The translations under genes were made by a program, and so were the position numbers. A stretch of 64,000 nt of DNA from positions 56,107 to 120,106 of the forward strand of contig OY762633.1 in assembly GCA_963666125.1 (NCBI GenBank). Direction: 5' to 3'. This document shows, piece after piece, positions 3,221 to 46,531 of the stretch. The stretch comes from Dehalococcoidia bacterium. GTDB lineage: Bacteria > Chloroflexota > Dehalococcoidia > Lucifugimonadales > CAJWER01. Below the pieces are notes generated by a model. The model did no database searches, was not told where the DNA came from, and saw only the letters and a list, made by a program, of their open reading frames with translations. Position 1 is the first letter of the stretch; the number at the start of each line of letters is the position of its first letter.

Positions 3221-3576
3221 GGGGACGCGTGGTTTCGACAGGGGGTTCGTTCCGCGGGATTGCAGGCCGGGGCGCCACCCACCTCGTAAAAAGGTGGCAC
3301 CACAGTAACTGGCAACGAAGCTTTGCCCGTCGCCGCCTAAATAGGCGGCGCGTTCACCGCAATCCCCTCCTCGAGGGAGGCGAGTTGAGCGACGCAATTC
3401 GGGGTGCTGTTCCGGCGATGCCGATAGCCGGGGCCTAAGACCATCGGCTGGCCTTCGCGCAGTCCCGCCGGCAAGGGCTGCGCGAGAGGCGAGAGCCAAA
3501 TGCCGGCTATGCCTGTAGTACATCTCAGCCGGGCAACCCTTTGGACGGGGAGTTCGACCCTCCCCCGTCTCCACCA
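3221..3576 (+). ncRNA. ssrA: tmRNA (transfer-messenger RNA); tag reading frame 3311..3340 encodes GNEALPVAA then a stop
   Basis: The 5' GGGGACG pairs with 3' CGTCTCC and includes the G3:U70 alanine identity pair, followed by ACCA. The start ggggacgcgtggtttcgacagggg is classic tmRNA. A T-arm-like ggagttcgaccctcc is present. The internal short ORF ends in VAA-TAA. Confidence 0.92.
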
Positions 3577-4799: not shown

Positions 4800-4812
4800 C
4801 GACCTGAATTGG

Positions 4813-4846
4813 TGAGCACTGCCCTTCGACAGGCTCAGGGCGAACG
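4813..4846 (+). repeat. Dispersed repeat family A copy (tgagcactgcccttcgacaggctcagggcgaacg)
   Basis: Lies between two convergent genes. The same string occurs at 40563 and 40736, and with 1-3 changes at 49714 and 56470. Confidence 0.85.
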
Positions 4847-5596
4847 TTGGGACGTTCCTACCAGGGTGGTGGTTGACGCGGCCGTCAGGTCCGCCTTTAG
4901 CTGGCGGGTGTGGGCCGAGTAGCCGGTCAATTCCGCCTGGAGTCTTGACCGGGTGGCCTCCAGCTCCCTCTTCGCCTTCCTGACGGTCCTGATTTCGCTG
5001 ATGATGGACCAGGCCGCGAAGAGCGGACCTAGGATGATGCCGACTATCGTGAAGGCTCCCAGGGCGAACCGCAGTCCGGTGGAAGCCGCTATCGAGCCTC
5101 CGGCGCCGCCGACCGAAGCGAATCTTGGCAGGAAGGTCAGCAGCCTTGCGCCCATCGGGCGCAGGACGTTCATGGCCGGCGCCGACATCGTTCTCCAGAC
5201 TGCGCTGGCGGCGAAGCTTCCTGCGTGTCGGCCGATGATGCTGAGCCGTGAATGGGGCGAGCCGTCGGCGACCGTGCGCTTACGGCGCCTGAGCACCCGG
5301 CGCCATAGTGGAGCAGGCGGCTCGGCGGCTTCGGGCTGCTCCGATTCCCGCAGGGCTTGCGGCAGCTCGGGCTCCGGCCTGCCAAGCTGGCTGCAGAACT
5401 CCACCTGCCTGTCGTACTGCTGCCGCATTCCGGCCCGGTGGCGCGATTCCAACTCCTCCAGCTCGTCGCGGAGCTCGTTGAGGCGGGCGCGGCTCTTCAG
5501 CTTGGCGACGGCCTGGGCGAGCGCCGACCCGCCGGCCACGCCCAGAGGTACTAGCAGTAGAGGTAACGGCATCTGACTCCAAGCTAGTCCTGCCAC
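4835..5596 (-). CDS. Hypothetical membrane / coiled-coil protein
   Basis: 253-aa ORF with a hydrophobic N-terminus, coiled-coil-like ELEELE segments and a C-proximal TM segment (FTIVGIILGPLFAAWSII). An alternative start is at 5572. No family recognised. Confidence 0.4.
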   Translation of the reverse strand: MAGLAWSQMPLPLLLVPLGVAGGSALAQAVAKLKSRARLNELRDELEELESRHRAGMRQQYDRQVEFCSQLGRPEPELPQALRESEQPEAAEPPAPLWRRVLRRRKRTVADGSPHSRLSIIGRHAGSFAASAVWRTMSAPAMNVLRPMGARLLTFLPRFASVGGAGGSIAASTGLRFALGAFTIVGIILGPLFAAWSIISEIRTVRKAKRELEATRSRLQAELTGYSAHTRQLKADLTAASTTTLVGTSQRSP

Positions 5597-16579: not shown

Positions 16580-19500
16580 ATGTCTTCCTGTATTCGCGCC
16601 CTGTGGTCGGCCACGTCAATCTTGCCGCTCGTGCTGGCCGCGGGTGTCCTCCTTTGGGGAGGACGTTGCCTCCTGTCCGCCCAGGCATCGGAGCCGCCTC
16701 CGGCCCCGACGCCTGACTTCTCCTTCAGGAAAGGCGACAGCCCCGCGAGCAAGCTCTACCTCTACTGGGCCGAACCCACGTCCCTGCCCGGAGGCGTATC
16801 GCCCATCACCGGCTACGATGTTCGATACAGGGAGCAGACGACGCCTGGGTCGGACTGGACGGAGCTCCTGGGTGTCACGACTACCGTCGATGGGCTGAGA
16901 CTCAAGACGCCCATCACGGGCCTGGAGTCCAACACTTGGTACGAGGCCCAGGTCCGTTCCGTGAATGCGGACGGTCACAGCGGCTGGGTGCCTGAGGCAC
17001 CCGTGCAGGCCAAGACGGCGCTCGCTCAGCTCACTGTGGCCTTCAGTGCGGCATCGTACAGCGTCGCCGAGGGAGCCTCCGTGGAGATTGCCGTGGACGT
17101 GAGTCCGGCGGCAGACCGGGACGACGACGTGACGGTGAACGTATCGGGAGATGGGGTGACCGTATCCGGGCTTGGGAACAACGGCACTCTGTCCATAACT
17201 CGCGGCAGCGATCAGGCCACGTTCACCGTTACGGGGGTTGAGGATGACGACTTGGACAATGCTACTGTCGACCTTCGGCTGGAGAAGTCGAGCAAGAGGA
17301 TTACCCTTGGTGATCCATACACGGCATCAGTCACCGTAGTAGATGGTGCGCCCACGCCTACACCGACTCCAACGCCCACGCCAACGCCAACGCCCACACC
17401 CACTCCGACGCCTACCCCAACACCCACGCCGACACCGACCCCTACGCCTACGCCAACACCCACACCCACACCCACGCCCACGCCCACTCCGACGCCCACG
17501 CCAACGCCTACCCCGACGCCCACGCCAACGTCAACACCAACGCCCACGCCCACGCCGACCCCTACGCCCACGCCAGCGCCGCCGCCGGCTCCGACACCTG
17601 ACTCCTTCAGGACGGACCCGGAAGACAGCCCCACCAGCAAGCTCTACCTCTACTGGTTCGCCCCCACGCCCCTGCCCAAAGGCGTATCGCCCATCACCGG
17701 CTACGATGTCCGGCACAGGGAGCGGACATCGCCTGAGTCGGACTGGACGGAGCACTTGGGCGTCACGACCATCGTCGATGGGCAGCGCCTCAAGGCGGCC
17801 ATCACGGGCCTGGAGTCGAACACGCCGTACGAGGCCCAGGTCCGTTCCGTGAACAAGGACGGCAGCAGCGGCTGGGTGCCTGAGAAGCCCAGGCAGGCCA
17901 AGACGGTGGCAGCCCAGCTCACGGTGTCCTTCAGTGCGGTATCGTACAGCGTCGACGAGGGGTCCTCCGTGACGATCACCGTGGCCGTGAGTCCGGCGGC
18001 GGACCGCGACGATGAGGTGGAGGTCGTAGTTTCAGGTGACGGCGTGACCGTGTCGGGACTGGATGACGACGACATGCTGAAGATCCCTCGTGGCAGTGAG
18101 AGCGTCACGTTCACCGTTACCGGAACCGAGGATGTCGATTCGACCAACGCTCTGGTCGACCTTTCCCTGAACGTGAGTGGCAAGATTACGGCTGGAGAGC
18201 CGAGGACGGCCTCCGTCACCGTGGTAGACAATACGCCGACGCCAACGCCCACGCCGACGTTTACGCCGACGCCGACACCGACACCCACGCCGACACCCAC
18301 CCCGACGCCTACACCTACGCCCACACCTACGCCCACACCGACACCAACGCCAACCCCAACCCCCACGCCGACTCCAACGCCGACACCCACACCCACGCCT
18401 ACGCCTACGCCGACACCCACCCCGACGCCTACACACACGCCCACACCGACACCCACCCCGACGCCTACACACACACCTACGCCCACACCGACACCAACGC
18501 CAACCCCAACCCCCACGCCGACTCCAACGCCGACACCCACACCCACGCCTACGCCTACGCCGACACCCACACCGACGGCCACACCTACGCCAACGCCGAC
18601 GGCCACTCCGACACCAACGCCCACACCTACACCCACGGCCACACCCACCCCGACGCCTACACCTACACCCACACCCACACCGACGCCGACACCAACGCCA
18701 ACCCCAACCCCCACGCCTACGCCAACGCCAACACCCACACCCACGCCTACGCCAACGCCAACACCCACACCTACGGCCACACCTACACCCACACCGACGT
18801 CGACAGCTACGCCCACGCCCACGCCAGCGCCGCCGCCGGCTCCGACGCCTGACTCCTTCAGGACGGACCCGGAAGACAGCCCCACCAGCAAGCTCTACCT
18901 CTATTGGCACGAGCCTATGCCCCTGCCCAAAGGCGTATCGCCCATCACCGGCTACGATGTCCGGCACAGGGAGCGGACGCCTGAGTCGGACTGGACCCAA
19001 CTCCTGGGTGTCACCACCATCGTCGATGGGCAGCGCCTGAAGGCGGCCATCACGGACCTGGCGTCGAACACACCGTACGAGGCCCAGGTGCGTTCCGTGA
19101 ACGACGTGGGCAGCAGCGCCTGGGTGCCGGAGATGCCCGTGCAGGCCAAGACGGTGGCAGCCCAGCTCACGGTGTCTTTCGGTGCGGGATCGTACAGCGT
19201 CGACGAGGGCTCGTCGGTGATGATCACTGTGCTCGTGAGTCCGGCAGCGGACCGGAACGACGACGTGACGGTGACCGTATCGGGAGATGGGGTGACCGTA
19301 TCGGGGCTCGGGGATGACGGCGCTCTGTCAATTGCCCGCGGCAGCGATCGTGCCACCTTCACCGTTACGGGAGTCGAGGATGCCGACACGGACGATGCCC
19401 GTGTCGACCTTTCCCTGAACGTGAGCGGCAAGATTACGGCTGGAGACCCGAGCACGGCCTCCGTCACCGTCGTAGACAATACACCCACACCCACACCTAC

Positions 19501-22312
19501 GGCCACTCCTACACCCACACCTACGGCCACTCCTACACCCACGCCTACACCGACGCCAACGCCAACTCATACGCCGACGCCAACGCCAACCCATACGCCG
19601 ACGCCAACGCCAACCCATACGCCGACGCCAACGCCAACCCATACGCCGACGCCAACGCCAACCCATACGCCGACGCCAACGCCAACCCATACGCCGACGC
19701 CAACGCCAACCCATACGCCGACGCCAACGCCAACCCATACGCCAACGCCAACGCCAACCCATACGCCGACGCCGACGCCAACCCATACGCCGACGCCGAC
19801 GCCAACCCATACGCCGACGCCGACGCCAACCCATACGCCGACGCCAACGCCAACCCATACGCCGACGCTGACACCGACGCCGACGCCGACGCCTACGCCT
19901 ACACCCACGCCTACGCCGACGGCCACACCGACAACGACACCGACGCCCACGGCCATCCCGACACCCACACCCACGCCTACGCCGACTCCAACGGCCACGC
20001 CGCCACCGACGCCCACCTCGCCACCAGCGCCAATCGAGGGCGGGGGCGAGATCGCGTTCCATGACGGTAGGGGGAGTGGCGCCGGGACCGTGCCCCTGAA
20101 CGAGCCGATCGCGTTCTACCTCCACGAGCCCGCCCTGAGCACGCCAAGATCCGGCACGGCAACCTGGACGTCCATCCCCGCCGCGGTGCCCGCGAATGAG
20201 CCTTGGAGCCTGGCGACAGGCGGTCCGCACCCATCCGTATTCGCCCTCGATACCGGCGCATTCGACAGGAACACCCCGTCAAACACGCCCCTGGCACTAA
20301 CCCCGCCGACGGCACATGTGGACGGGGTCCCACAGCTGGTCGGCAATATGTCCCAGGGAGACGGCAGCATCGCCTTGGTCTACGCCGTCGACGCGGGCAG
20401 TACGCTGGTGGTCGGATTCTCGTTCGACGTGGTGGACACGTACACGGCGGAGAGCCGTCGTGTGAAGGTGACCAGCACGTCCGATGGAGGTGGCGAGTGG
20501 ATCGCCTTCTCCGAGGTGGCGGGCACGGATGGCGCTGCGCCCCACGCTACTTCCGGCATATTTCGCGGCGGCGTCACGCCGAGCACGGATCTGGCCGCCT
20601 CCGCCCCTGGGGACGACAGGGTGTGGGTGAGGGGAGGAGACGAGTTGACGGTCGCCTATTACGGAGATGGTGGGGCCAGGCTGTACTCCGATACGATCAC
20701 CGTCGGCGTGCGACTCCCGACGGCCACACCCACACCCACGCCAACGCCGACTCCGACACCCACGCCCAGTGGCGACATCGCGTTCCACGGCGGTAGGGGG
20801 ACTGTGCCCCTGAACGAGCCGGTCGAGTTTTATCTCCGCGAGCCCGCCCTGAGCCCGTTGAGGTCCGGCACGGCAACCTGGACGGCCATCCCCGCCGCGG
20901 TGCCCGCGAATACGCCCTGGAGCCTGGTCACAGGCGATCCGCACCCGTCCGTATTCGACTCCGATGCAGGCGTATTCGACAGGGACACTCCGTCGAACAC
21001 GCCCCTGTCACTGACCTCCCCGCCGACGGCACATGTGGGCGGGACCCCACATCTGGTTGGTAATCTGTCCCAGGGAGACGGCAGCATCGCCTTGCTCAAC
21101 GATGTCGACGCGGGTAGCACGCTGGTGGTCGAATTCTCCTTCGACGTCTTGGACGCGTACACGGCGGAGAGCCGTCGTGTGAAGGTGACCAGCACGTCCG
21201 ATGCGGATGGCGAGTGGATCGCCGTCTCCGAGGTGGCGCGCACGGACAGCGCTCTGCCTGATCCATCTTCCGGCATATTCCGGGGCAGCGTTACGCCGAG
21301 CACGGATCCGGATTCCGCCTCCCCTGGAGACGACGCGGTGTGGGTGAAGGGAGGCGACGAGTTGACGGTCGCCTATTACGGAGATGGTGGAGCCAGGCTG
21401 TACTCCGACACGATCATCGTCGGGAGGCGCAAGCCCACACCCACGCCCACGCCCACACCGACACCCACACCTACGCCAACACCGACACCCACACCTACGC
21501 CAACACCGACACCCACACCTACGTCCACGCCGACGCCGGACAGTACGACCACGCCAACGCCGACTCCGACGGGCACAGCCACCTCTACGCCTACGAGCAT
21601 TCCCACTCAGGCGCCTGTCCCACCCATCGTGATCATCTTGCCCACGCCTACGTTTACGCCCAAGCCCACACCGTCACCGACCGGTACGCCCACGCCAACA
21701 GCAACTCCGACGCCGACTCCCACGCCTACGCCGACCAGTACGCCAACGGCAACGCCGGCGAGCACGCCCACGCCGACTCCCACGCCTACGCCGACCAGTA
21801 CGCCAACGGCAACGCCGACGAGCACGCCCACGCCGACACCGACAGCCACGTTTACGCCGACGCCGACGAGCACGCCTACACCGACACCAACGAGCACGCC
21901 CATACCGACGCCCACGAGCACGCCGACTCCCACGCCTACGCCGACCAGTACGCCAACGGCAACGCCGACGAGCACGCCCGCGCCGACACCAACGCCCACG
22001 CCGACGCCGACGAGCACGCCCACGCCGACGCCGACGAGCACACCCACGTCGACGCCGACAAGCACACCCACGTCGACACCAACGCCCACGCCCACGCCAA
22101 CCAGTACGCCCGCTCCCCAACTGGTTTCGGTGGCAGCGCCTGCCGTCTCTCCGATGCCGTTACTGGCTGCGCCTATCGTCGATACGGGTAGGGAATCGAA
22201 CGGTGGCGAAGGAGCATGGCACGAGAGCTGGACGCTTGCTTTGGGCGCGTTCGTGGCAGCCTCCCTCGCCGTGTCGCTCCTGGGCCGCCGCCAAGAAGAA
22301 TCGACGATATAG
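16580..22312 (+). CDS. Giant secreted, membrane-anchored surface protein: 3 x (FN3 + Calx-beta-like) modules, 2 x unknown ~220-aa domain, very long (Thr-Pro)n linkers
   Basis: 1910 aa with an N-terminal signal-like hydrophobic segment. FN3-like units carry ITGYDVR...YEAQVRSVN. Calx-beta-like units carry [25 protein letters not shown]. The C-terminus has a TM helix plus a basic stop-transfer ([20 protein letters not shown]). Confidence 0.8.
19555..19870 (+). repeat. 24-bp tandem repeat, about 13 units, encoding (TPTPTPTH)n inside the giant gene
   Basis: Units of acgccaacccatacgccgacgcca repeat almost perfectly. I count 13 His residues at an 8-residue period in the translation. Confidence 0.9.
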
Positions 22313-22353: not shown

Positions 22354-22429
22354 CGGGGTGTGGCGCAGTCGGAAGCGCGCGTCGTTCGGGACGACGAGGT
22401 CGCTGGTTCAAGTCCAGTCACCCCGACCA
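22354..22429 (+). tRNA. tRNA-Pro (anticodon CGG), CCA encoded
   Basis: Manual cloverleaf: acceptor CGGGGTG/CACCCCG, D stem GCGC/GCGC, anticodon stem CGTCG/CGACG with loop TTCGGGA, T arm GCTGG-TTCAAGT-CCAGT, discriminator A, then CCA. Confidence 0.9.
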
Positions 22430-35918: not shown

Positions 35919-36305
35919 TTACCCTGGCAGTGGGATGGCGGCGTGCTCTGTGGCTGGGGTGGGGTCCAGGCGGTGTGCGATGGGGTTGACCTTGAAGCCG
36001 AGGGTCTCCAGGGTGGTGTAGCCGACCAGGGGGCGCTCGGCGTTCCCGCCTGCGGCGACCAGCACGGGCCTGCGGACCCCGGCTATCTCCACGTCGGCCA
36101 GGGCGAGCTGGCGGCGTATCGTCCTGCCGTCGCCGATCTCGATCTCGGCCTCGTAGGCCGCCTCCAGCCCCAGCTCGTCGAACAGCACGCGCGGCACCTT
36201 CGTAAAGGTCGCCGCAGTGTCCGCCAGCGCGGATACGACCACCGAGCCGGAATTTCCATGGATGCTTATGTCGACGTGTGTCTGTCCCATTAGGGATTGG
36301 CTCAT
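35919..36305 (-). CDS. Retropepsin-like (clan AA) aspartic protease, single domain
   Basis: About 128 aa from MSQSLMGQT. SALADTAATFTKVP resembles the D[TS]G[AS] active-site loop, but with Ala in place of Gly. LVGYTTLETLGFKV resembles the C-terminal LLG...L motif. The start lies 1 nt after the upstream gene's stop. Confidence 0.6.
   Translation of the reverse strand: MSQSLMGQTHVDISIHGNSGSVVVSALADTAATFTKVPRVLFDELGLEAAYEAEIEIGDGRTIRRQLALADVEIAGVRRPVLVAAGGNAERPLVGYTTLETLGFKVNPIAHRLDPTPATEHAAIPLPG
35946..36088. repeat. Direct repeat copy 2 (~143 bp), inside the 3' part of the intact protease gene
   Basis: See copy 1. The two copies are 1166 bp apart, start to start. Confidence 0.85.
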
Positions 36306-36306
36306 C

Positions 36307-36870
36307 TCAGCCCGTGAAGACTGGCCTGAGTCCCAGCGCCACACTCTTGGCACGCACCTCTTCCCTGGCGGCAGGTACCTGCAGGTGATGCTGGAGCCTC
36401 TGATCTGCCAGCCAGAAGATGGCGGCCGAGGACAGCATCATCGTAGCCTGGATTACCAGTCCTATCGCAAGCAACACCCATGCTATCCAGTGGAAAGCCA
36501 TTCCTATCTCCGGCAGTCCCAGCAGGGGTACGATTTGTCCCGTCGCCGCCAGGGTGAGCCCGTACACCGAAGCTACCATCGCAAGCACGAAGATCAGCGC
36601 AAACAAAACAGCACCGCGTGATGGACTCTCCGCAGCTTCCTCAGGGTCCAACCCCATCTGTCTGATCAGCCTGGAAGCTTTGTCACTGAGCTTGTCGAGC
36701 AGCCTCGTCGTCGTAAAGACGATGACGAACCGAGCCACGATGCTGCAGCCGTACGCCACGATGACAACCTCCGTCCAGTTGCTCGGCGGGTGACCCTGCA
36801 GACCAATGACTACCAAAATCACGTTCGTCAGGACGAGAGCAAAGATTAGCTCAGGCACGTACTTCTTCAT
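36307..36870 (-). CDS. Hypothetical integral membrane protein (about 5 TM)
   Basis: 187 aa from MKKYVPELIF, with GGAGTGGAGG upstream. Hydrophobic helices run throughout. About 50% GC. Confidence 0.6.
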   Translation of the reverse strand: MKKYVPELIFALVLTNVILVVIGLQGHPPSNWTEVVIVAYGCSIVARFVIVFTTTRLLDKLSDKASRLIRQMGLDPEEAAESPSRGAVLFALIFVLAMVASVYGLTLAATGQIVPLLGLPEIGMAFHWIAWVLLAIGLVIQATMMLSSAAIFWLADQRLQHHLQVPAAREEVRAKSVALGLRPVFTG

Positions 36871-37082: not shown

Positions 37083-38864
37083 CTATCCAGGGAGGCTCAT
37101 GCGGGGATCACGACCATCTTCAATGGCGATTTCCAATTCGTCCTCGCACGCCTCCCACAACAATTCTGTTGGCACGACCCCCTTGCCCAATTCTCCTGAT
37201 GCCCTGAAGAAATCCCGAAGCTCTATGTCCTCTTTCGAGATATTCAAGGCTCGTCTGTAGGCAGATCTGCAGGCTCTGTCAGCAACTCTTACCATGCCAG
37301 GCATCCAGGAATCGATTTCCGATGCAAGTCTTGTGGACAAGTCGCTGCTGAAGTACGATGCCCCTGAGATGCCATAATGATCTCGAAGTATTCGCGACAA
37401 CAACCACAGCACATGGAAATTGGAGAAGCGCAAGCTTACACCATTCTTGAGCACATGCTGGAGACTCTTCCATGGCAGGATGAGCTGCTGCGCCTTCACA
37501 CCTGATGGGAATGCCCGCTCATACCATTCACGATCTTCGTGTGAACGGATTCCCTGAAACACAAAGCGTACACGGTCAAGGGCGACAGCAGGATAGCCAC
37601 GGAAGGCAAGCGAAGCCTGGGCCAGCGGCTGAACTTCAATATGTCGTTTCTTCGGTCCAGTCTTGAACCTTGCCTTCTGTTTGTCCGTGAGCACGAATCG
37701 CCAGTACCCCTGCTTGATCTCATAGTACCAGGGAGGTTGCAGCTTCTCAAAGTCAAACTGGAGCTGCTTTTGCTGCTTCTCAAAGGACGTGTAATCTTTG
37801 GCCCTGAGCGCGGTTTGCGAATTTGAAGAGGAAGCGATCTCTTCGGCCAACGCAATATCAGCCACGACCAGCTTGAGATCGACAAGCGTCTCCTTCAACT
37901 CAGTCTCCGAACGCTTGCTCAGTGTGACCGTAGTTTGACATCCATTCACGATCTGGAAGTTTCTTACGATGAGGCTCTTGCTCTCCACAGCGAATGCGAA
38001 CTCATCGCAGGTAGCGCATAGCCCATTGTTAAGCAGATGAAAGGTCTTTCGTCCATCGGAAGAATCCAGGCTGTTCTGAATGCTCTTGTTCACTTTTGCG
38101 TTAGCTATTGGGCCTCGTGGATTGAGGGAAAACAGCCGGAACCCCTGCTCATTGAAGACCCTGACGATCTCGCTTGCAGCTATCGTGGCCCTGATGGACT
38201 TCAGATCAGCATTGTCAACGACGTAGTTCCATTCACTGCCCAGATCAAGCTTCACGTCTGGGGCGTCTCCAATGAAGCCAGCCTTGTAATTATCGAACGC
38301 CTGGGCAGTGTCATTCTCATCCCACAGTTCTAGTGAGCATCTGCATACAATCTCCGTATTGTCCCTTAGTCGCAGAGGGCGCTCGCCGTCTCTCCTAGCC
38401 TGTGAGAATTTCACTGCCGCGGGAGCGAAGCCACTCTTTGAGACAAATACCATAGTGATTCGATACTCTTCCAGGAGTCTCTCATTGAGTTGTACGCTAA
38501 GCTCCCCTACCGATTGATTTTGATTCTCATTCACCCGCTCAGCATTCAGCAACTCTTCTGGAGATTGCCAGAACTTCGCAAGGCTTTCTTCGCCCACTCG
38601 ATTTTCGCCGCCCACTGATTGAAACAGGAGAATAGACTCCGATGTCTCGTCAACAAACCAGCCGTCCACTTCAAGATCGTCTTTCTTGTCTATGGCGGTC
38701 ATCTCGATGACCTGCTCGTCAGAGAGCGTGACGTCCGGGGCAACCATCTGAAATGCGGCATGCCTGAATGCCCTGCCGTCATCGCCTTCATACCAGGTCT
38801 CACTCAGTTCCCTCACGTGCTCTCGGAACTGAGTAAGTGCTATCTTCGTGGCCTTATCTGCCAT
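37083..38864 (-). CDS. AIPR-family abortive-infection (Abi-like) protein
   Basis: 593 aa. The central FQIVNGCQTT matches the hallmark NG-x-QT motif of the AIPR family. The N-terminal region (AIDKKDDLEVDGWFVDE...ILLFQSV) resembles the usual AIPR N-domain. About 48-50% GC in the lines I sampled. Confidence 0.75.
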   Translation of the reverse strand: MADKATKIALTQFREHVRELSETWYEGDDGRAFRHAAFQMVAPDVTLSDEQVIEMTAIDKKDDLEVDGWFVDETSESILLFQSVGGENRVGEESLAKFWQSPEELLNAERVNENQNQSVGELSVQLNERLLEEYRITMVFVSKSGFAPAAVKFSQARRDGERPLRLRDNTEIVCRCSLELWDENDTAQAFDNYKAGFIGDAPDVKLDLGSEWNYVVDNADLKSIRATIAASEIVRVFNEQGFRLFSLNPRGPIANAKVNKSIQNSLDSSDGRKTFHLLNNGLCATCDEFAFAVESKSLIVRNFQIVNGCQTTVTLSKRSETELKETLVDLKLVVADIALAEEIASSSNSQTALRAKDYTSFEKQQKQLQFDFEKLQPPWYYEIKQGYWRFVLTDKQKARFKTGPKKRHIEVQPLAQASLAFRGYPAVALDRVRFVFQGIRSHEDREWYERAFPSGVKAQQLILPWKSLQHVLKNGVSLRFSNFHVLWLLSRILRDHYGISGASYFSSDLSTRLASEIDSWMPGMVRVADRACRSAYRRALNISKEDIELRDFFRASGELGKGVVPTELLWEACEDELEIAIEDGRDPRMSLPG

Positions 38865-38889: not shown

Positions 38890-39174
38890 TCACCAGCTCA
38901 GGTGCAGCATGATGGTGTTGCCGTCCCAGGGGAGATTCCTGATCCAGCCCAGGAGACTGTCGGAGTCCCGCGCGTGAAGATTGCGTTCCTTCATGAACTC
39001 CGCGACATTGGCCACCATCGTCGAGTAGTAGAGCTCGACGAATCTGTTGCCCTCTGCCGAAACGTTCCATTCGACGTCCTCCACCTCCGCCGTCAGGTAT
39101 TGTAGGAAATCATAGACGCTGTCGCTTGGCCTGTCGAGGTACTTGATACTGACGACGCCTACGTCCAGTCCCAT
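38890..39174 (-). CDS. Small protein, paralog 2 (94 aa, ends LPWDGNTIMLHLSW)
   Basis: GGTGAGGTGA lies upstream of the ATG. Roughly one third of residues are identical to the upstream 97-aa protein across the full length. The gene ends 25 nt before the AIPR start. Confidence 0.6.
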   Translation of the reverse strand: MGLDVGVVSIKYLDRPSDSVYDFLQYLTAEVEDVEWNVSAEGNRFVELYYSTMVANVAEFMKERNLHARDSDSLLGWIRNLPWDGNTIMLHLSW

Positions 39175-39271: not shown

Positions 39272-39565
39272 TCACCAGCTGAAGTGTAGCATAATCTGGT
39301 CGTCTTCCCACGGGAGGGCGTCGACCCAGCGCCTGATCCTGGCGGCGGCGTCCTCGGTCAGGTTCTTGCCCTTGGCGTATTCGTTCATCTCCAGGGACAT
39401 GGCCTCGCGCGAGTATTCGACTATGGTGTTCATGTCGGACGAGACCCTCCAGGTCTCCTCGTCGTTGGCGTGGAGCTCGAGGTGCCAGACGAAGTCGGAT
39501 ATCTCCTTGTCGGGGCTGGCCAGGTATTTGATTTGGGTGGGGATGACGCCGATCTGGAGGGCCAT
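39272..39565 (-). CDS. Small protein, paralog 1 (97 aa, ends LPWEDDQIMLHFSW)
   Basis: Aligns end to end with paralog 2. Shared residues include IKYL, DF, W.VS, VE, NL, LPW and IMLH.SW. Confidence 0.6.
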   Translation of the reverse strand: MALQIGVIPTQIKYLASPDKEISDFVWHLELHANDEETWRVSSDMNTIVEYSREAMSLEMNEYAKGKNLTEDAAARIRRWVDALPWEDDQIMLHFSW

Positions 39566-39596: not shown

Positions 39597-39984
39597 GTGT
39601 CGAGCCCCCCCCCATCCTAACCTTCCCCCGCTCAGGGGGGAAGGGATAAGGCCGGGGATAAGGGTAGTACGGGCGTTCGTGCTGTGTCAAGGGGCCGGGG
39701 ATGGATTCCCGCTTTCGCGGGGACGACGGAAGGGGGGCGCGGGGACGACCCTTCGACAGGCTCAGGGCGAACGGGTGTGGGGGAATCGGCGGAGCATTGT
39801 CCTTCGACAGGCCCTTCGACTGCGCTCAGGACAGGCTCAGGACGAACGGGGGGAGGGCGGGTTGCAAACCCGCCCCTACGATGGCCGAGGCATGGGGGAG
39901 CAGGAATGACCCTTCGACCCTTCGACGGGCTCAGGACAGGCGGGCTCAGGGCGAACGGGGGGATGGGGGTGGTACAATGGGGGT
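39597..39984. repeat. Repeat-dense non-coding block upstream of rnpB (families F, C, A, A-variant, B, A)
   Basis: Copies at 39607..39645 (F), 39697..39729 (C), 39749..39773 (A), 39791..39848 (A variant), 39849..39880 (B) and 39909..39956 (A variant). The track ORFs here are translations of repeats. Confidence 0.8.
39973..39978 (+). promoter_or_regulatory. Candidate extended -10 (TGgTACAAT) for rnpB
   Basis: The hexamer ends 7 nt before the predicted RNase P RNA 5' end. Confidence 0.45.
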
Positions 39985-40385
39985 GCGCAAGAGGGCCGGG
40001 CAGCCGCCGTTCCGATTTTGTCGGGAGGGAGGAAAGTCCGAGCACCATCGGGCGAGGATGCCCGCTAACGGCGGGGCGGGGCGACCCGACGGAAAGTGCC
40101 GCAGAAAGTTATACCGCCCCGAGCAATTCGGGGTAAGGGTGAAATGGCGAGGTAAGAGCTCACCGCTCCGGTGGCAACATCGGAGGCATGGCAAACCCCA
40201 TCCGGTGCAAGGCCGAATAGAGGGACGGCGCCCGACCAGGTCCCCGGGTTGGCCGCTGGACCCCGTTGGCAACGGCGGGGCTAGATAGATGGCTGCCGCC
40301 TTCGCGTTCATGGGGAGGAAGTCCGTTAAGGGTGTAAACCTGTGGGTGTGGGGGTACAGAACTCGGCTTACAGGCCCTCTTGCGC
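39985..40385 (+). ncRNA. rnpB: RNase P RNA, bacterial type A
   Basis: P1 pairing of gcgcaagagggcc (5') with ggccctcttgcgc (3'). Conserved regions gggaggaaagtccgagc (CR-I) and acagaactcggcttacag (CR-V). gtaagagctcaccg and ggtgaaa elements are also present. Confidence 0.9.
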
Positions 40386-40789
40386 GTCCTGGCTCTGGCG
40401 AACGGGGGGAGGGCGGGTTTCAAACCCGCCCCTACGATGGCGAGGCATGGCAAGCCCGCCGGGGATGGATTCCCGCTTTCGCGGGGATGACGGTTATGTA
40501 GGCGGGAATGACGGGTTATGTGGGGTCTCCTGGCGCGATTGGGCCGTTCGTGCTGAGCACTGCCCTTCGACAGGCTCAGGGCGAACGGGGGGGAGGGCGG
40601 GTTTCAAACCCGCCCCTACGATGGCGAGGCATTGCAAGCCCGCCGGGGATGGATTCCCGCTTTCGCGGGAATGACGGTGTGTAGGCGGGAATGACGGTTA
40701 TGTAGGCGCGATTGGGTCGTTCGTGCTGAGCACTGCCCTTCGACAGGCTCAGGGCGAACGATCTTCACCCTCACCCCAGCCCTCTCCCA
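40386..40789. repeat. Tandem array (about 2.2 copies) of a ~182-bp composite unit: [A tail][B hairpin][C][gtaggcgggaatgacgg][A]
   Basis: The string gcgaacggggggagggcgggtttcaaacccgcccctacgatggcgaggcat.gcaagcccgccggggatggattcccgctttcgcgg recurs at about 40397 and 40579. Family A recurs at 40563 and 40736. Confidence 0.85.
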
Positions 40790-42109
40790 TCAAGGGAGAG
40801 GGGGTAAGAGGAATACCTCTATCCGGTCGTCGTGGACGATGACCTTGGAGATTAGGCGGGTTACTAGGGCGCGTTTCTGGTCGAAGTCGAGGGAGGGCCA
40901 GTTGGTTAGGGCGGCTTCCGCGTTGGGCGGGGGGGAGGCGGCGGATTGGCGGGCTGTGTCTAGCTCGGCGAGGTACTCGCCGAGGGTTCGGGTGGTGATC
41001 TCGCCCCGGGCGGCGCGCCTGACGGCGTCCAGCATGCGGCGCTCGGCGTTCGCGGCCTCGGACGCCGTCGCGCCGTCGGGCTCGCCTGCGCCGCCTCCCA
41101 GTGGGCCGCGCTTGGCTGCCGCCCGCAGCTCGTCGGCCACGGCCTCGTCGAGGCTGGCCTCGCGCCAGGTGTGGTAGCCGCAGCGGCCCTGGTTGCTCCT
41201 GGACTGGCACTGGTAGTAGCGGTAGGTCCCGGACGCCCTTTCGCCGTCCTTCCGCCTCCACGAACTGCGCCTGGTCACGCCCATCATCCCGTTGCCGCAG
41301 TAGGCGCAGTGGGCCACGCCCGACATCAGGAACGGGCGCGAGCTGTTGACCCGGCCGAAGGGGCGGCGCGACCGGGCGGTCTCCTGGGCGGCCCTGAAGC
41401 TCTCCGCCTGCACGATGGCCTCGTGGGCGTTGGGGCGGCGCATGCCCAGCCTGGTGTACGTCCCGATGTAGGCGGGGTTCCTGAGGATGCCCCTGACGCT
41501 GGCGACGCTCCAGCTTCCGCCGCCGCGGGTCGTCAGCCCGCGCCGGTTCAGGTCCTGGACGATGAGCCTGAGCCCCAGCCCGTAGCGCGTGTACATGCGG
41601 AATATCATGCGCACCACCTGGGCCTCGCTCGAATAGATCTCCAGCCGCCCGCTGGGGCCGATCCTGTAGCCGTAGGGCGGACGCCCCAGGGCGCGGCCCT
41701 CCAGCGCGCGGACGCTCATCGACTCCCTAGCCCGGCCGCTCCGCTCCGCCCGCGCGTCCCCCAGGCCGAACAGGCGGATGGCGTTCTGGACGGGGTCCGG
41801 GTACTCGTCCCCCATGCACACGACCCGGACTTCGAGGCGGTCGAGGGAGACGAGGGACCTAACCGCGTCCTCCAGGCCGTCCCCGAGGTCCGCGGCCGAG
41901 TCGACGACGACCAGGAAGTCCGCGCCAACACGGTCCAGGTGCTCGAGGAGGGGCCGGATGGGGGAGTCGCCCTCGTCCTCCGGGGCGGCCTCCAGGACGG
42001 CTATGGGCTGGTGCAGGTTGAGGTAGCAGTACTCATGGAAGCGCGCGGCGAGGGACTCGGACGTCCGGCCCTCGTGCTCTCCGAGCCTGAAGTATCCGAT
42101 GGCGCGCAC
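40790..42109 (-). CDS. Large serine-recombinase homolog with a degenerate catalytic N-domain
   Basis: 439 aa. The recombinase domain (GRPPYGYRI..., VRMIFRMY, GLGLRLIVQDLNRRGLTT, WSVASVRGILRNPAYIGT) and the zinc-ribbon region (HCAYCG...YYQCQS) are clear. The N-terminus reads AIGYFRLGEHEG where Y-x-R-V-S-[ST] is expected. Confidence 0.7.
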   Translation of the reverse strand: MRAIGYFRLGEHEGRTSESLAARFHEYCYLNLHQPIAVLEAAPEDEGDSPIRPLLEHLDRVGADFLVVVDSAADLGDGLEDAVRSLVSLDRLEVRVVCMGDEYPDPVQNAIRLFGLGDARAERSGRARESMSVRALEGRALGRPPYGYRIGPSGRLEIYSSEAQVVRMIFRMYTRYGLGLRLIVQDLNRRGLTTRGGGSWSVASVRGILRNPAYIGTYTRLGMRRPNAHEAIVQAESFRAAQETARSRRPFGRVNSSRPFLMSGVAHCAYCGNGMMGVTRRSSWRRKDGERASGTYRYYQCQSRSNQGRCGYHTWREASLDEAVADELRAAAKRGPLGGGAGEPDGATASEAANAERRMLDAVRRAARGEITTRTLGEYLAELDTARQSAASPPPNAEAALTNWPSLDFDQKRALVTRLISKVIVHDDRIEVFLLPPLP

Positions 42110-42119
42110 GGGGGCACCC

Positions 42120-42821
42120 TCACGGAGCGTAGAGGATGCGGCCGCATGAGCTGCACTGGACGATCTGCTGCCCGCCGCGCGCCCGCTGGGTCTCCTGGGT
42201 CGTCAGGGACAGGCGGCACCCCTGGCAGGTGCCGCGCTCGACGATCGCGATGGCGCGCCCCCCCTTGCCCTTGCGCAGGGACTCGTACAGGGGCAGCAGG
42301 TTGCCCGGCATGGTTGGCAGCAGGGCGGCCCTGTCGGCCTGTAGCGACTCGATCCTCGCCGAGGTGTCGCGCCCCTCTTTCTTCCAGGCCCTTTCGAGGC
42401 CCGGCCTCTCGTCGCGGAGCGTCGTCGCCGTCTCCCGGGCCTCGGTCAGCACCGGCTCCAGCTCCTCCAGGTCGATCATGACCTCGAGAAGCTGGTCCTC
42501 GGCCTCCTTCTTCCTGGCCGCCGTGAATGCCTGCTCCTCCTGGGCCGCCGCAAGCTGCTGGGGGTTGGTCACGCTGCCGCCGTAGAGCCGGTCGTTCAGC
42601 CGCTCCAGGGTCGTCTCGACCTCCGCGACGAGGCGTTCGAAGGCGCGGCTCCGGGTCGAGAGGTCGGCCTTGCGCTTCTCCAGCCGCTCCAGGCGCTCGG
42701 CGGACTTCTGGAGCTCGGAGCGGTCGGCGAGCCTGTTCCGCAGAGACTCGCGGCGAGCCTCCGCCTCCACCAGCTCGAGGTCGATCTCCTGCAGGCCGTA
42801 GAGCTGCTTCACACCCCACAT
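42120..42821 (-). CDS. COG1579/DUF164-type coiled-coil protein with a C-terminal C4 zinc ribbon
   Basis: 233 aa from MWGVKQLYGLQEIDLEL. Long coiled coil, then C-terminal CQGC...CSSCGRILY. The 689-aa track ORF is an upstream read-through artefact. Confidence 0.75.
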   Translation of the reverse strand: MWGVKQLYGLQEIDLELVEAEARRESLRNRLADRSELQKSAERLERLEKRKADLSTRSRAFERLVAEVETTLERLNDRLYGGSVTNPQQLAAAQEEQAFTAARKKEAEDQLLEVMIDLEELEPVLTEARETATTLRDERPGLERAWKKEGRDTSARIESLQADRAALLPTMPGNLLPLYESLRKGKGGRAIAIVERGTCQGCRLSLTTQETQRARGGQQIVQCSSCGRILYAP

Positions 42822-42902
42822 GGCGGATAGTATACCCCAACAGGATGAATTCCACGCTGGAATGGGGCATAATTGGGGTTGTACGGGAGCGGAGCAGTCC
42901 CC

Positions 42903-44348
42903 ATGCGCATCGAGGCGGCGAGGCCCAAGACGAAGATCGTGTGTACGCTCGGCCCGGCAACCTCGACCGAAGAGGCGGTGCGGTCGCTGGCCGAGTCCGG
43001 CATGAGCATCGCCCGGCTCAACCTCTCCCACGGCGCCATCGGCGAGCACCGGGAATCGCTGCGGATCGTCCGCAAGGTCTCCGCGGACATGGGCACCCCC
43101 CTCGGCGTCATGGTCGACGTGCCCGGCATCAAGTACCGGACGGGCCCCACGGACCCCGGCGTGGTCAACCTGGCGGTGGGCGACGACTTCACCCTGACCA
43201 GCAGGGACGTAGTCGGCAGCGAGCGGCTGGTCTCCGTATCGCCGCCCGGGATCCACAGGGACGCCGCGCCGGGCAGCGCCGTCCTGCTCGACGACGGGCT
43301 GATGGAGCTGGAGGTGGCCGGGGTCGAGGGCGAGGACGTGGCGTGCACGGTGGTGAGGGGCGGGCGCCTCACCGAAGGACGGGGAGTCGCCACGCCGGGG
43401 AGGAGCCCGTCCCACACGTTCCCGAACGAGAAGGCCGTCGAGGCGCTGGAGTTCGCCGCGGAGTGCAGGGCGGACTTCGTCGCGCTGTCCACCGTCACGG
43501 GGCCCCACGACATCGCGGCTGCCAGGCTGATCCTGGAGAGGCAGGGCCACGTCCCGCTGGTCATCTCCAAGATAGAGCGGTCCGACGCCGTCGACGACTT
43601 CGAGAAGATACTGGCCGTGAGCGACGCCATAATGGTCGCGAGGGGCGACATGGGCGTGGAGGTGCGGCTTGCCAGGGTGCCCGTCCTGCAGAAGAGGCTG
43701 ATCGCCCTGTCCAACCATGCGGGCAAGCCCGTGATCACCGCCACGCAGATGCTCGAATCCATGATCCGCTCCTCGGTTCCGACGCGGGCGGAGGTCACGG
43801 ACGTGGCCAACGCGATCTATGACGGCACGGACGCGATCATGCTGTCGGGCGAGACGTCCGTAGGGCGGTACCCTGTGGAGGCCGTCAAGGTGATGGCTGA
43901 GGTGGCGCTGCAGGCCGAGGCCGCGCTTCCGTACGACGAGATGATCGCCGACAAGCTCCCGCACCTGGTGCCCCAGACGGACGACGCCATCAGCTACGAT
44001 GCCTGCCGCACGGCGCGCCAGCTCGACGCCGCGCTCATAATCGCCTTCACCGAGTCGGGAGGCACGGCGGTCCGCGTCTCCAAGTACCGGCCCGTCTCGC
44101 CCATACTGGCCCTGACGCCCAGCGAGGAGGTCCGCCGCCGGCTCACCATCTCCTGGGGCGTCATACCCATCACCGTGTCGATGATCCACACGGTGGAGGA
44201 CTTCTTCAGGGTCGGCGAGGACGCCGCCGTGAACATCTGCGGGGTAGGAGAGGGCGACCTGGTGATCCTGGTGGCGGGCCTGCCCATCGGGGTTCCCGGG
44301 GGCACGAACCTGCTCAGGGTGCTCACCATATCCGACGGGGCCGGCTGA
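42903..44348 (+). CDS. pyk: Pyruvate kinase
   Basis: RPKTKIVCTLGPAT, ARLNLSHG and MVARGDMGVE motifs. Start chosen at MRIEAARPKTK. Confidence 0.9.
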   Translation: MRIEAARPKTKIVCTLGPATSTEEAVRSLAESGMSIARLNLSHGAIGEHRESLRIVRKVSADMGTPLGVMVDVPGIKYRTGPTDPGVVNLAVGDDFTLTSRDVVGSERLVSVSPPGIHRDAAPGSAVLLDDGLMELEVAGVEGEDVACTVVRGGRLTEGRGVATPGRSPSHTFPNEKAVEALEFAAECRADFVALSTVTGPHDIAAARLILERQGHVPLVISKIERSDAVDDFEKILAVSDAIMVARGDMGVEVRLARVPVLQKRLIALSNHAGKPVITATQMLESMIRSSVPTRAEVTDVANAIYDGTDAIMLSGETSVGRYPVEAVKVMAEVALQAEAALPYDEMIADKLPHLVPQTDDAISYDACRTARQLDAALIIAFTESGGTAVRVSKYRPVSPILALTPSEEVRRRLTISWGVIPITVSMIHTVEDFFRVGEDAAVNICGVGEGDLVILVAGLPIGVPGGTNLLRVLTISDGAG

Positions 44349-46531
44349 TGCTGCGGGTCTACGACACGCTCAGCAGGGGCCTGTCCACGATCCGGCCCGC
44401 CGGGGCCGCTCGCGTGGGGATGTACACGTGCGGGCCGACGGTGTACAGGGACGCGCACATCGGCAATCTCCGCTCGTACATGATGGCCGACTGGATCCGC
44501 CGCGTCCTCGAGCTCCAGGGCGTCTCCGTCCGGCACGTGAAGAACATCACGGACGTGGGCCACATGCGCCAGGAGGCCCTGGAGCGGGGAGGGGACAAGG
44601 TCATCGTCGAGGCGCTGGCCAGGGGGATGACCCCGCAGGCCATCGCCAGCCACTACACCGACCGCTTCCTCGACCAGGAGCGCAGGCTGAACATCCTGCC
44701 CGCCCACGTCTACCCGAAGGCCACCGACCACGTCCCGGACATGATCGCGATGGTGGAGGCGCTGGTGAGCAAGGGGCACGCCTACGCGGCCGGCGGCAAC
44801 GTCTACTACGACGTGTCGAGCTTCGAGGGCTACGGCAAGCTCTCCGGCAACACGGGGGAGCAGGCCCTCCAGGACGCCGTACGCATCGACCCGGACCCGC
44901 TCAAGAGGGACCCGCGCGACTTCACCCTGTGGAAGCTCGGCGAGCCGGGGCGCGACCTGGTGTGGGACAGCCCGTGGGGCAGGGGATTCCCGGGCTGGCA
45001 CATCGAGTGCTCGGCGATGTCGATCAGGTACCTGGGCGAGCGGTTCGACATTCACACGGGCGGCGTCGACAACGTGTTCCCGCACCACGAGGGGGAGGTA
45101 GCCCAGAGCGAGGGTTTCGTCGGGGGGCCGGTGGTGACGACGTGGGTCCACGGCCAGCACCTGCTGGCGGACGGCGTGAAGATGGCCAAGTCGGCGGGCA
45201 ACTCGTTCACGCTGTCGGACATCGAGTCCCAGGGGATCGACCCCCTCGCGCTCAGGTACCTGTGCATGACGGCCCGGTACAACACGCGGCTCAACTTCAC
45301 CTTCACGTCCCTGAAGGCGGCGCAGCGGGGCCTGCTCAGGCTGCAGGACCGGGTCTGGGAGTGGGGGCGGCTGCCCGACGCGCCCATCGACGAGGCCGCG
45401 CTGGGCGGCTGGGAGGCCCGGTTCCTGGAGCGGGTCAACGACAACCTGGACCTGCCGGGCGCCCTCGCGCTGACGTGGGACCTGGCCCGATCGGACCTGC
45501 AAGGCCGCGCGAAGCTGGAGGGCGTGCTGCGCTTCGACCGGGTGCTCGGCCTGGGCCTGGCGGACGTGGGTTCCGGCTACGGGGTCGACCAGGAGATTCT
45601 GGGCGCGGTCGAGCATCGGGTCGGCCATCGACGGAGGGGCGAGTACGAGAGCGCGGACGCGCACCGGGAGGAGATCGCGAGCCGTGGATTCGTGCTGCGG
45701 GACGGGGCGGACGCGACCGCGGCCCGGCCCAAGACCGCGTGGGAGGCGCACGAGGAGACGTGGCGCTCGGTATCGTCGTCCGCGGAGGTGGAGTCGCTGA
45801 TCGACGAGCCCGACGAGGTCGACTTCACGGTTGGCATGGTGGCCGGGGACCACGTGGACGATGTGCGGCGCTGCCTGCGCGGCGCTCTGCGATGGGCCGG
45901 GGGCCGCACCGTGGAGGCGATAGTCGTCGACAACGGCTCGACGGGCGAGATGGCCGGATGGCTGGAGGAGGAGGCGGAGCGGGAGCCGCGCCTGAGGGTG
46001 GTGCACACGGACCACGTGCTCGGTGAGGGCGCCGCGCGCAACATTTTGCTCAGGTCGAGCCGGGGCCGGGTGGTCGTGCTGCTCGACACGAGCGCCGAGA
46101 TCACGGGCGACGTGTTCGGGCCCATCGCGGGGATGCTGGACGACCCCGCCGTTGGGGTCGCGGGGCCGTTCGGCCTGAGGAGCACGGACCTGCGCCACTT
46201 CCACGAGTGGGAGGGCGAGGCCGGCGAGATGGACGCGATGCAGGCGTACTGCTTCGCCTTCAGGCGGTCGTGCCTGCGTGAGGTGGGCCTGATGCGCGAG
46301 AGCTTCCGCTTCTACCGCAACCTGGACATAGACTACAGCTTCCACTTCAGGGACAAGGGCTACCGGATCGTGGCCGACCCGGACCTGCCCGTGCGCCTGC
46401 ACGAGCATCGCGCCTGGAGCGCGTTGAGCGAGGATGAGCGGGAGGAGTCGAGCCGCAGGAACTTCACCCGCTTCCTCGACAAGTGGGGCGACAGGCTCGA
46501 CCTGGTCGTCGCCGGCCCCGACGAAGGCTGA
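44348..46531 (+). CDS. cysS: Cysteine--tRNA ligase fused to a C-terminal family-2 glycosyltransferase domain
   Basis: 727 aa. YTCGPTVYRDAHIGNLRS (HIGH-like), KMAKSAGN (KMSKS) and a full CysS anticodon-binding and C-terminal region. From about 45815 there is a GT2-like domain (VVDNGSTGE...LLDTSAE...FAFRR). TGATG overlap with pyk. Confidence 0.8.
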   Translation: MLRVYDTLSRGLSTIRPAGAARVGMYTCGPTVYRDAHIGNLRSYMMADWIRRVLELQGVSVRHVKNITDVGHMRQEALERGGDKVIVEALARGMTPQAIASHYTDRFLDQERRLNILPAHVYPKATDHVPDMIAMVEALVSKGHAYAAGGNVYYDVSSFEGYGKLSGNTGEQALQDAVRIDPDPLKRDPRDFTLWKLGEPGRDLVWDSPWGRGFPGWHIECSAMSIRYLGERFDIHTGGVDNVFPHHEGEVAQSEGFVGGPVVTTWVHGQHLLADGVKMAKSAGNSFTLSDIESQGIDPLALRYLCMTARYNTRLNFTFTSLKAAQRGLLRLQDRVWEWGRLPDAPIDEAALGGWEARFLERVNDNLDLPGALALTWDLARSDLQGRAKLEGVLRFDRVLGLGLADVGSGYGVDQEILGAVEHRVGHRRRGEYESADAHREEIASRGFVLRDGADATAARPKTAWEAHEETWRSVSSSAEVESLIDEPDEVDFTVGMVAGDHVDDVRRCLRGALRWAGGRTVEAIVVDNGSTGEMAGWLEEEAEREPRLRVVHTDHVLGEGAARNILLRSSRGRVVVLLDTSAEITGDVFGPIAGMLDDPAVGVAGPFGLRSTDLRHFHEWEGEAGEMDAMQAYCFAFRRSCLREVGLMRESFRFYRNLDIDYSFHFRDKGYRIVADPDLPVRLHEHRAWSALSEDEREESSRRNFTRFLDKWGDRLDLVVAGPDEG

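Follow-up and report, generated by a model that had tools for sequence, protein, structure and literature searches.

A homolog of the large serine recombinases (LSRs) that lacks their catalytic residues, designated here as the pseudo-LSR, is encoded on contig OY762633.1 of a Dehalococcoidia bacterium (assembly GCA_963666125.1), within a stretch of 64,000 nucleotides (nt) that is called the window throughout and whose numbering is used for all coordinates. The protein retains the complete scaffold of a serine integrase, has been kept under purifying selection across Dehalococcoidia and SAR202, and is encoded directly behind a gene of the COG1579 family and close to rnpB, the gene of the RNase P RNA. 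On this evidence, it is probably a vertically inherited, catalytically dead LSR descendant that has been domesticated as a DNA-binding housekeeping protein with COG1579 as its partner.

Serine integrases have been studied almost solely as enzymes of mobile elements and as tools for genome engineering, and if an LSR scaffold has persisted in single copy among the core genes long after the loss of its active site, this would be a clear example of non-catalytic recombinase exaptation in bacteria. No earlier description of the family was found in the literature on Ser-less or inactive serine recombinases and on COG1579 together with rnpB. Meanwhile, the genes of the family are annotated as "recombinase family protein" or "DNA invertase Pin-like", labels because of which island and prophage finders may wrongly count them as evidence of mobile elements in genomes of Dehalococcoidia/SAR202.

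An integrase scaffold without its catalytic residues

Pfam searches assigned PF07508 (Recombinase; residues 161-247, 74.2 bits, E 1e-20) and PF13408 (zinc ribbon; residues 261-329, 49.7 bits, E 5e-13) to the pseudo-LSR, which confirmed the two domains that an earlier reading of the letters without database searches (the sequence-only reading) had recognized, while no match to PF00239 was obtained for the window protein. The remainder of the architecture was derived from an AlphaFold2 (AF2) model built with 117 family members as input (predicted local distance difference test, pLDDT, 83), in which the N-domain adopts the topology b1(2-8)-aA-b2-aB-b3-aD-b4 and is followed by a long helix (121-136), the predicted helices 345-367 and 373-391 form a two-helix arm, and a strand pair (420-434) stands at the end. 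When Foldseek was run against the PDB, the top matches were full-length serine integrases, with SPbeta (9dxd, 7.5e-20) followed by Bxb1, A118 and PhiC31, and the isolated catalytic domains of Sin, TP901-1 and gamma-delta resolvase were matched as well. In addition, the family profile aligned by hhalign with six annotated phage LSRs over 420 columns (prob 100, E 7e-47), and the C-terminal region of the pseudo-LSR aligned with the same region of phage LSRs and of the A118 integrase.

By sequence, the N-domain is far diverged, and its profile gave only chance-level matches against PDB sequences. The family is linked to PF00239 by a Ser-less member, P0213, which passes the gathering score of this model with 44.8 bits (P0 numbers denote protein cluster representatives, and L numbers denote loci of related genomes). 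Conservation is pronounced in the helix E region, where R123 is invariant and S124, S130 and M131 are nearly invariant, and in the zinc ribbon, whose C268, C271, C301 and C310 are invariant across the 117 family members. The N-domain is acidic, with a family mean net charge of -10. The recombinase domain (+9) and the zinc-ribbon domain (+10.5) are strongly basic, a character that would be expected if they bind nucleic acids.

The catalytic Arg/Asp set of serine recombinases comprises R8, R45, D67, R68 and R71 in gamma-delta numbering. The N-terminus of the pseudo-LSR reads (M)RAIGYFRLGEHEG, and its catalytic positions were mapped through hhalign and MAFFT, because the N-domain profile gave nothing usable in the PDB. 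In the profile-profile alignment with the six phage LSRs, G10 lies opposite the nucleophile serine, as the sequence-only reading had proposed, and the 117 members carry at this position chiefly G (38), D (16), E (14), A (10), S (7), P (7), K (6) and T (5), so that the nucleophile position is unconstrained across the family. An alternative upstream start might have supplied a nucleophile serine, and none is available: a stop codon occurs 32 codons upstream of the GTG in the same frame, with no ATG, GTG or TTG between.

The equivalent of R8 is retained in 78 of the 117 members, and that of R45 is replaced in the MAFFT alignment with the nearest catalytic LSRs. In the same alignment, the DRFGR of their LDRFGRN motif falls opposite A73-D74-L75-G76-D77, where the family reads x-H-L-G-x, which agrees with the earlier observation that DSAADLGD stands in place of D-R-L-x-R. 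The hhalign comparison with the distant phage LSRs offers a different register, L79-E80-D81-A82-V83-R84, that would keep a D-to-E change and one arginine; the R68 equivalent is lost in both. The MAFFT register is preferred, since it uses the closest relatives and is ungapped from strand b3 onward. The loss of the nucleophile serine and of the R45 and R68 equivalents was borne out by these alignments, and the N-domain appears to be a resolvase fold without an active site, in which the equivalents of Ser, R45, D67, R68 and R71 are all lacking. Other N-domain residues are invariant or nearly so, namely C28, H33-Q34-P35, E80, R84, C98, P104 and Q108-N109, and the many polar ones among them suggest that the domain has gained a new role, for instance as an interaction or ligand site.

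Purifying selection, distribution and descent

Orthologous loci were compared in a set of 81 (the window, L001 and 80 loci from a scan of GTDB species), and the open reading frame (ORF) is intact at every one of them, encoding 433-466 amino acids (aa) by protein alignment, with a few proteins extending beyond the usual stop. The Nei-Gojobori ratio of nonsynonymous to synonymous substitution rates (dN/dS), calculated for the window and the nine relatives closest to it, is 0.20 overall, with 0.25 for the N-domain, 0.11 for aa 126-145 (helix E and linker), 0.12 for the recombinase domain (aa 146-250), 0.12 for the zinc ribbon (aa 251-330) and 0.33 for the C-terminal arm.

A word-indexed protein search yielded 653 homologs among 8,000 candidates scored, and the 120 that were listed are mostly of about 430-460 aa, nearly all with only PF07508 and PF13408. 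With one genome scanned per species, 305 GTDB species encode a relative at 43-80% identity; the best 80 of these 305 all belong to the Chloroflexota (Dehalococcoidia, SAR202 or unclassified Chloroflexota metagenome-assembled genomes, MAGs). A profile of the N-domain alone retrieved 374 proteins at E <= 1e-3 from 1.84 billion cluster representatives (50% identity). Core-gene synteny is fixed at more than 85 loci. No family member was found in the 2.9 million viral contigs of IMG/VR, tblastn of the N-domain against phage and plasmid collections gave no match, and PADLOC assigned neither the pseudo-LSR nor the COG1579 gene to a defence system.

These data bear directly on the alternative raised by the sequence-only reading that the gene is a decayed integrase, that is, a neutrally evolving pseudogene remnant of a mobile element integrated by rnpB. 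Stable-RNA genes are classic integration targets, and such a remnant would account for the lost catalytic residues, the position adjoining rnpB and the low-GC island nearby. However, all 81 orthologs are intact without a frameshift, the dN/dS of about 0.2, with 0.12-0.33 by domain and the N-domain included, indicates purifying selection, the gene is conserved across the 305 species representatives, and the closest relatives compared possess the gene and not the island. Decay is thereby refuted, and we give it next to no credence. Furthermore, both the degenerate N-domain and the linkage to COG1579, whose conservation the earlier reading had proposed to check, are kept across Dehalococcoidia/SAR202, the linkage in nearly all lineages.

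Concerning the descent of the family, the best 150 N-domain matches included 82 full-length proteins, of which seven carry an intact Ser motif, P0274 begins inside the motif, and the rest lack it. In a neighbour-joining (NJ) tree rooted with phage integrases, the 78 Ser-less leaves form one clade, with eight catalytic proteins as its sister; at 50% identity, the Ser-less clade divides into about 75 clusters, and it covers no fewer than 305 species. This monophyly suggests that catalysis was lost apparently once and in ancient times. The sequence-only reading had also spoken of a domesticated, non-catalytic DNA-binding derivative, and the domestication and the loss of catalysis are strongly supported by the intact ORFs, the dN/dS values, the class-wide conservation and the single Ser-less clade, while DNA binding is a property that we infer.

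The COG1579 partner, rnpB and the surrounding DNA

The first gene of the pair encodes a protein of the COG1579 family, with PF24481 (CT398-like coiled-coil hairpin; 61.8 bits, E 1e-16) and PF02591 (C4 zinc ribbon, CQGC...CSSC; 41.5 bits, E 1.5e-10) both above their cutoffs; it reaches 64.5 bits against the NCBIfam model of CdsZ, whose cutoff is 275, and is not a CdsZ ortholog. A Shine-Dalgarno-like GAGGG overlaps the COG1579 stop codon (42120-42122), an arrangement consistent with translational coupling of COG1579 and the pseudo-LSR across the spacer of 10 nt, for which the sequence-only reading had given the same length. The window and L001-L009 share the conserved motif ttggggTATACTa..ccATG, and the TATACT box lies so near the COG1579 ATG that it suggests a leaderless or near-leaderless transcript for the pair.

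A COG1579 ortholog lies directly upstream on the same strand at 81 of 81 loci, with a spacer of 7 or 10 nt at 52 of them and of at most 12 nt at most others. The same order occurs in deep Ser-less branches, as represented by P0213 (1-nt gap), P0238, P0169 (4-nt) and P0206 (12-nt). Such tight and near-universal coupling points to expression of the two genes in fixed proportion, and probably to a complex of their products.

Further downstream, rnpB follows on the same strand at 59 of 80 related loci, mostly about 50-200 nt past the pseudo-LSR stop, and it does so in deep branches as well. The deeper branches read COG1579, pseudo-LSR, RNase H, rnpB, or the same without RNase H; in L088 (3550-5389) and L090 (5001-6916), both from deep Ser-less branches, the RNase H gene begins 0-7 nt after the pseudo-LSR and precedes rnpB. 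Two loci without the pseudo-LSR are informative: L096 has COG1579, RNase H and rnpB in this order, and L097 has COG1579 followed by rnpB after a 60-nt gap, with a CysS-glycosyltransferase neighbour that is shared with the window. In other phyla, too, COG1579 homologs have been described as syntenic with rnhA, and those of Borrelia also with the gene of the RNase P RNA (PMC3372290). Since the block exists without the gene and the gene is always found at the same place, the pseudo-LSR represents an insertion into an older housekeeping block, as would be expected if an integrase gene had been captured upstream of rnpB in ancient times. The integration near rnpB that the sequence-only reading had envisaged is therefore plausible only as a very ancient event. 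As a side observation, a 166-aa gene called at L097 4699-5199 (-) has no Pfam match, lies wholly over rnpB (4762-5236, +) and is probably a spurious call.

In nearly all related loci listed, rnpB has its own -10 box (TACAAT/TAAAAT) a few nt upstream of its 5' end, and nothing else was found to be conserved in the spacer before rnpB. In some loci, this spacer measures just 13-34 nt, so that the -35 region of rnpB must lie inside the 3' coding end of the pseudo-LSR. Such proximity, the synteny with rnpB at 59 of 80 loci and the RNase H gene directly downstream in the deeper branches would suit a protein whose substrates are RNA or RNA:DNA hybrids and whose work is tied to that of RNase P RNA and RNase H, for example in maturing rnpB, assembling RNase P or handling R-loops. 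This role is unlikely, because in LSRs the recombinase domain and the zinc ribbon are known to bind double-stranded DNA (matches to PDB 4kis and 9dxd), and the COG1579/pseudo-LSR pair persists where rnpB has moved away. Moreover, as the COG1579-rnhA-rnpB block predates the gene, the synteny with rnpB may have been inherited from the insertion site instead of being functional.

Table 1. Coordinates of the pseudo-LSR gene, its domains and the neighbouring features in the window
Feature	Position	Strand	Details
Pseudo-LSR gene, LSR homolog, catalytically dead	40790..42109	-	439 aa + stop; GTG start at 42109, stop codon at 40790-40792
Spacer from COG1579 stop to pseudo-LSR GTG	42110..42119	-	10 nt
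N-terminal resolvase-fold domain	41750..42109	-	aa 1-120; AF2 topology, Foldseek, alignments
Helix E equivalent	41690..41749	-	aa 121-140; conserved motif RSxRIKESMRxRAL; AF2 helix 121-136
Recombinase domain, basic	41360..41689	-	aa 141-250; PF07508
Zinc beta-ribbon domain	41105..41359	-	aa 251-335; PF13408; YRYYQCQ / YHTWR motifs
Coiled-coil insertion and C-terminal beta-hairpin closing the zinc-ribbon domain, as in LSRs	40793..41104	-	AF2 secondary structure
COG1579 / CT398-HP0958-family gene, first of the pair	42120..42821	-	233 aa; PF24481, PF02591
TATACT -10-like box	42829..42834	-	7 nt upstream of COG1579 ATG
rnpB, bacterial RNase P RNA type A	39988..40386	+	RF00010, 285.6 bits vs gathering 100, full length 1-367
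rnpB TACAAT -10 box	39973..39978	+	moved along with the inverted segment; preceded by TGG
Two composite REP/MITE-like repeat copies between pseudo-LSR and rnpB	40399..40780	.	repeat families D2-D6, I1-I3
Further copies of the same composite repeat, other side of rnpB	39694..39961	.	repeat search
AIPR/AbiU-like abortive-infection gene in island	37083-38864	-	
Aspartyl-protease-like ORF in island	35919-36353	-	
Two small paralogous ORFs in island	38890-39174, 39272-39565	-	ending ...MLH(L/F)SW

In the window itself (Table 1), rnpB stands on the strand opposite to the pseudo-LSR, a point absent from the sequence-only reading, which had correctly placed it about 400 nt away across a repeat array; the distance from the gene stop to the nearest rnpB end (40386) is 403 nt. 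The segment of about 39965-40390, the -10 box included, is inverted relative to all 59 relatives with an adjacent rnpB, as confirmed by alignment, and is bracketed by the two tracts of composite repeats, which resemble repetitive extragenic palindromic (REP) sequences or miniature inverted-repeat transposable elements (MITEs). The copies between rnpB and the pseudo-LSR are of about 184 nt each and 98% identical, and the units share a core near-palindrome, GGGCGGGTTTCAAACCCGCCC; six-frame ORFs through them yield the "GFQTRPY"-type peptides of spurious ORF calls. The native -35 element of rnpB (TTGGCA in L001 and L003) has been lost, and the TGG before the -10 box is extended -10-like.

An inverted rnpB right beside the gene might point to an active recombinase or invertase that works through a non-canonical nucleophile or active site, or with a catalytic partner in trans, and that controls, for example, the orientation of rnpB. 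The retention of helix E, of the recombinase and zinc-ribbon domains and of the coiled coil would be in keeping with activity, as would the many invariant polar residues of the N-domain. On the other hand, the nucleophile position is unconstrained and the R45, D67, R68 and R71 equivalents are gone, the inverted segment is edged by REP-like repeats and not by conserved sites resembling attachment (att) sites, and a motif scan (Y-x-R-V-S-[ST]-x-x-Q type) detected no catalytic serine recombinase in the window or in the first 81 loci. The identical orientation of rnpB in 59 of 59 relatives where it is adjacent likewise gives no sign of an orientation switch, and we consider continued recombinase activity very improbable.

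The G+C content of the window is 64-72% outside a low-GC stretch at about 34-40 kb, in which an island of about 6.3 kb (about 33.4-39.7 kb, G+C 0.56-0.59) lies beside rnpB. This island is missing from the closest relatives compared, namely from L001 and from those other close relatives for which the comparison could be read, and since synteny with them resumes at about 33.4 kb, the insertion is specific to this genome. In addition to the island genes of Table 1, it holds several ORFs without a Pfam match, and no integrase was found in it. The island is, on this comparison, a recent insertion, and a connection to the pseudo-LSR is not evident. The sequence-only reading had regarded the gene as relevant to the origin of the adjacent island, which did not hold up; a derivation of the island from the pseudo-LSR was rejected, as the same gene is present in relatives without the island.

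The position of the gene could also be seen as that of an integration-site guard, in which a dead integrase would occupy an attB-like site near rnpB and block related serine-integrase elements. Recognition domains for DNA kept without catalysis, at a site adjoining a stable-RNA gene, are what such a guard would need. Yet the present genome did acquire an insertion next to rnpB, 21 loci keep the gene although rnpB is not nearby, the tight coupling to COG1579 would be left unexplained, and conservation of such class-wide depth is unusual for an anti-element function, so that a guard seems highly unlikely.

Several features of the window lie outside this locus. A 727-aa fusion at 44348-46531 (+) combines a cysteinyl-tRNA-synthetase-like part (PF01406) with a family-2 glycosyltransferase (PF00535), assignments taken from the syntenic orthologs, which are conserved in relatives (L001 and L097); the protein may be a CysS paralog for small-molecule (thiol?) biosynthesis instead of a tRNA synthetase. 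A 1910-aa ORF at 16580-22312 (+) contains long hexanucleotide (ACGCCC-type) arrays that are apparently Thr/Pro-rich by their codons and are probably the cause of the extreme GC/AT skew at 18-20 kb. A tmRNA gene (3221-3576, +) and a tRNA gene (22354-22426, +) were also located.

Proposed function and comparison with known systems

The course of events under the domestication reading may be proposed as follows. An LSR gene would have been fixed between COG1579 and (rnhA)/rnpB in the ancestor of a large Chloroflexota clade (Dehalococcoidia/SAR202), where it would have lost the nucleophile serine and the catalytic Arg/Asp residues, apparently once, and would afterwards have persisted in single copy among the core genes, in translational coupling with COG1579. 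All the parts with which an LSR recognizes DNA as a dimer are still there, namely helix E, the basic recombinase domain, the Cys4 zinc ribbon and also the coiled-coil arm, and the pseudo-LSR most likely attaches to specific sites in double-stranded DNA and leaves them uncut. The co-expressed COG1579 protein is probably its partner in a housekeeping module, of which one part would anchor to DNA and the other would contact RNA polymerase.

The role in transcription is suggested by what has been reported for the partner family. RNA polymerase or sigma-factor binding by COG1579 proteins has been addressed in the literature by experiments on HP0958 and CT398, and HP0958 stabilises sigma-54 (PMC3372290). 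More recently, the CT398/ML1638 family was predicted to dock on RNA polymerase at the shelf and jaw of beta', from where its coiled coil would extend to the sigma site (bioRxiv 10.64898/2026.07.15.738315). On this basis, a more specific and tentative proposal, which we rate as rather doubtful, is that COG1579 and the dead LSR constitute a two-subunit machine, in which the LSR part would provide sequence-specific DNA anchoring, its N-domain with C28, H33-Q34, E80, R84, C98 and Q108-N109 would form a new interaction or ligand site, and COG1579 would contact RNA polymerase, the whole controlling transcription or the handling of R-loops where stable RNAs are encoded, as at rnpB. If this were true, a serine integrase exapted to housekeeping would be on record in bacteria for the first time, and the widespread COG1579 family, whose mechanism is enigmatic, would become functionally accessible.

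Several points weigh against the domesticated, DNA-binding partner of COG1579 as proposed here. DNA binding, a target site and a complex with COG1579 are all things that we infer, and the polymerase binding of COG1579 that was taken from the preprint is an AlphaFold3 prediction (10.64898/2026.07.15.738315). The invariant polar residues of the N-domain (C28, H33, Q34, E80, R84, C98, Q108 and N109) are not obviously structural, and the protein may do more than bind DNA. An operator-like palindrome upstream of the operon was not found by k-mers over the 81 loci and by inspection of close relatives, which returned only the promoter-like TATACT box. With respect to synteny, the P0276 lineage has the pseudo-LSR without COG1579 directly upstream, as the one exception found, and no rnpB occurs within 6 kb at 21 of the 80 loci. 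The NJ tree was computed without bootstrap from sequences chosen by N-domain similarity, and the family members all come from MAGs or metagenomes.

Among known systems, the LSRs (A118/LI, SPbeta SprA, Bxb1 and PhiC31; PDB 4kis, 9dxd, 9iu2 and 9rah) have the same full-length architecture and predicted fold as the pseudo-LSR, including the resolvase-fold N-domain, helix E, the Recombinase domain, the Cys4 zinc ribbon with its coiled-coil insertion and the C-terminal strand pair. Unlike them, the pseudo-LSR is without Ser and without the R45, D67, R68 and R71 equivalents, its N-domain in the window is unrecognisable as PF00239, and it is a single-copy core gene of fixed synteny that was not found on phages or plasmids and has no att repeats and no context of a recombination directionality factor. 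The nearest catalytic relatives are LSRs of uncultured bacteria (P0259, P0262, P0268, P0270 and P0247; AVGYFRVS[ST]xGQ ... LDRFGRN), which the N-domain profile matched at E 1e-11 to 1e-14. They share the GY(F)R, "YC" cysteine and EYR.ML motifs with the pseudo-LSR, align without gaps from b3 and form its sister group in the NJ tree, whereas they keep the Ser motif and DRFGR and score 88-94 bits against PF00239; P0259, the one catalytic context looked up, has no COG1579 or rnpB.

Integrases fixed in a host chromosome offer a further comparison. SpoIVCA is a host-domesticated catalytic LSR, and XisF resembles the pseudo-LSR as an LSR fixed in the host chromosome and serving a host function. Over its recombinase and zinc-ribbon domains, the pseudo-LSR matched in part the NCBIfam models of XisF and of CcrA, CcrB and CcrC, the recombinases of SCCmec (E about 1e-13), with scores far under the equivalog cutoffs (49 bits vs 375-900). 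XisF and SpoIVCA are catalytic and excise a defined element, in contrast to the pseudo-LSR, for which neither an element nor catalysis is evident. As for the partner gene, it shares the coiled-coil hairpin, the C4 zinc ribbon and the rnhA/RNase P RNA synteny with HP0958 (FlgZ), CT398 (CdsZ) and MSMEG_4306/ML1638, and no described member of the COG1579 / DUF164 family has been reported as paired with a recombinase-derived gene. The coupling of the pseudo-LSR to COG1579 within the old COG1579-(rnhA)-rnpB block thus provides testable hypotheses for both proteins.

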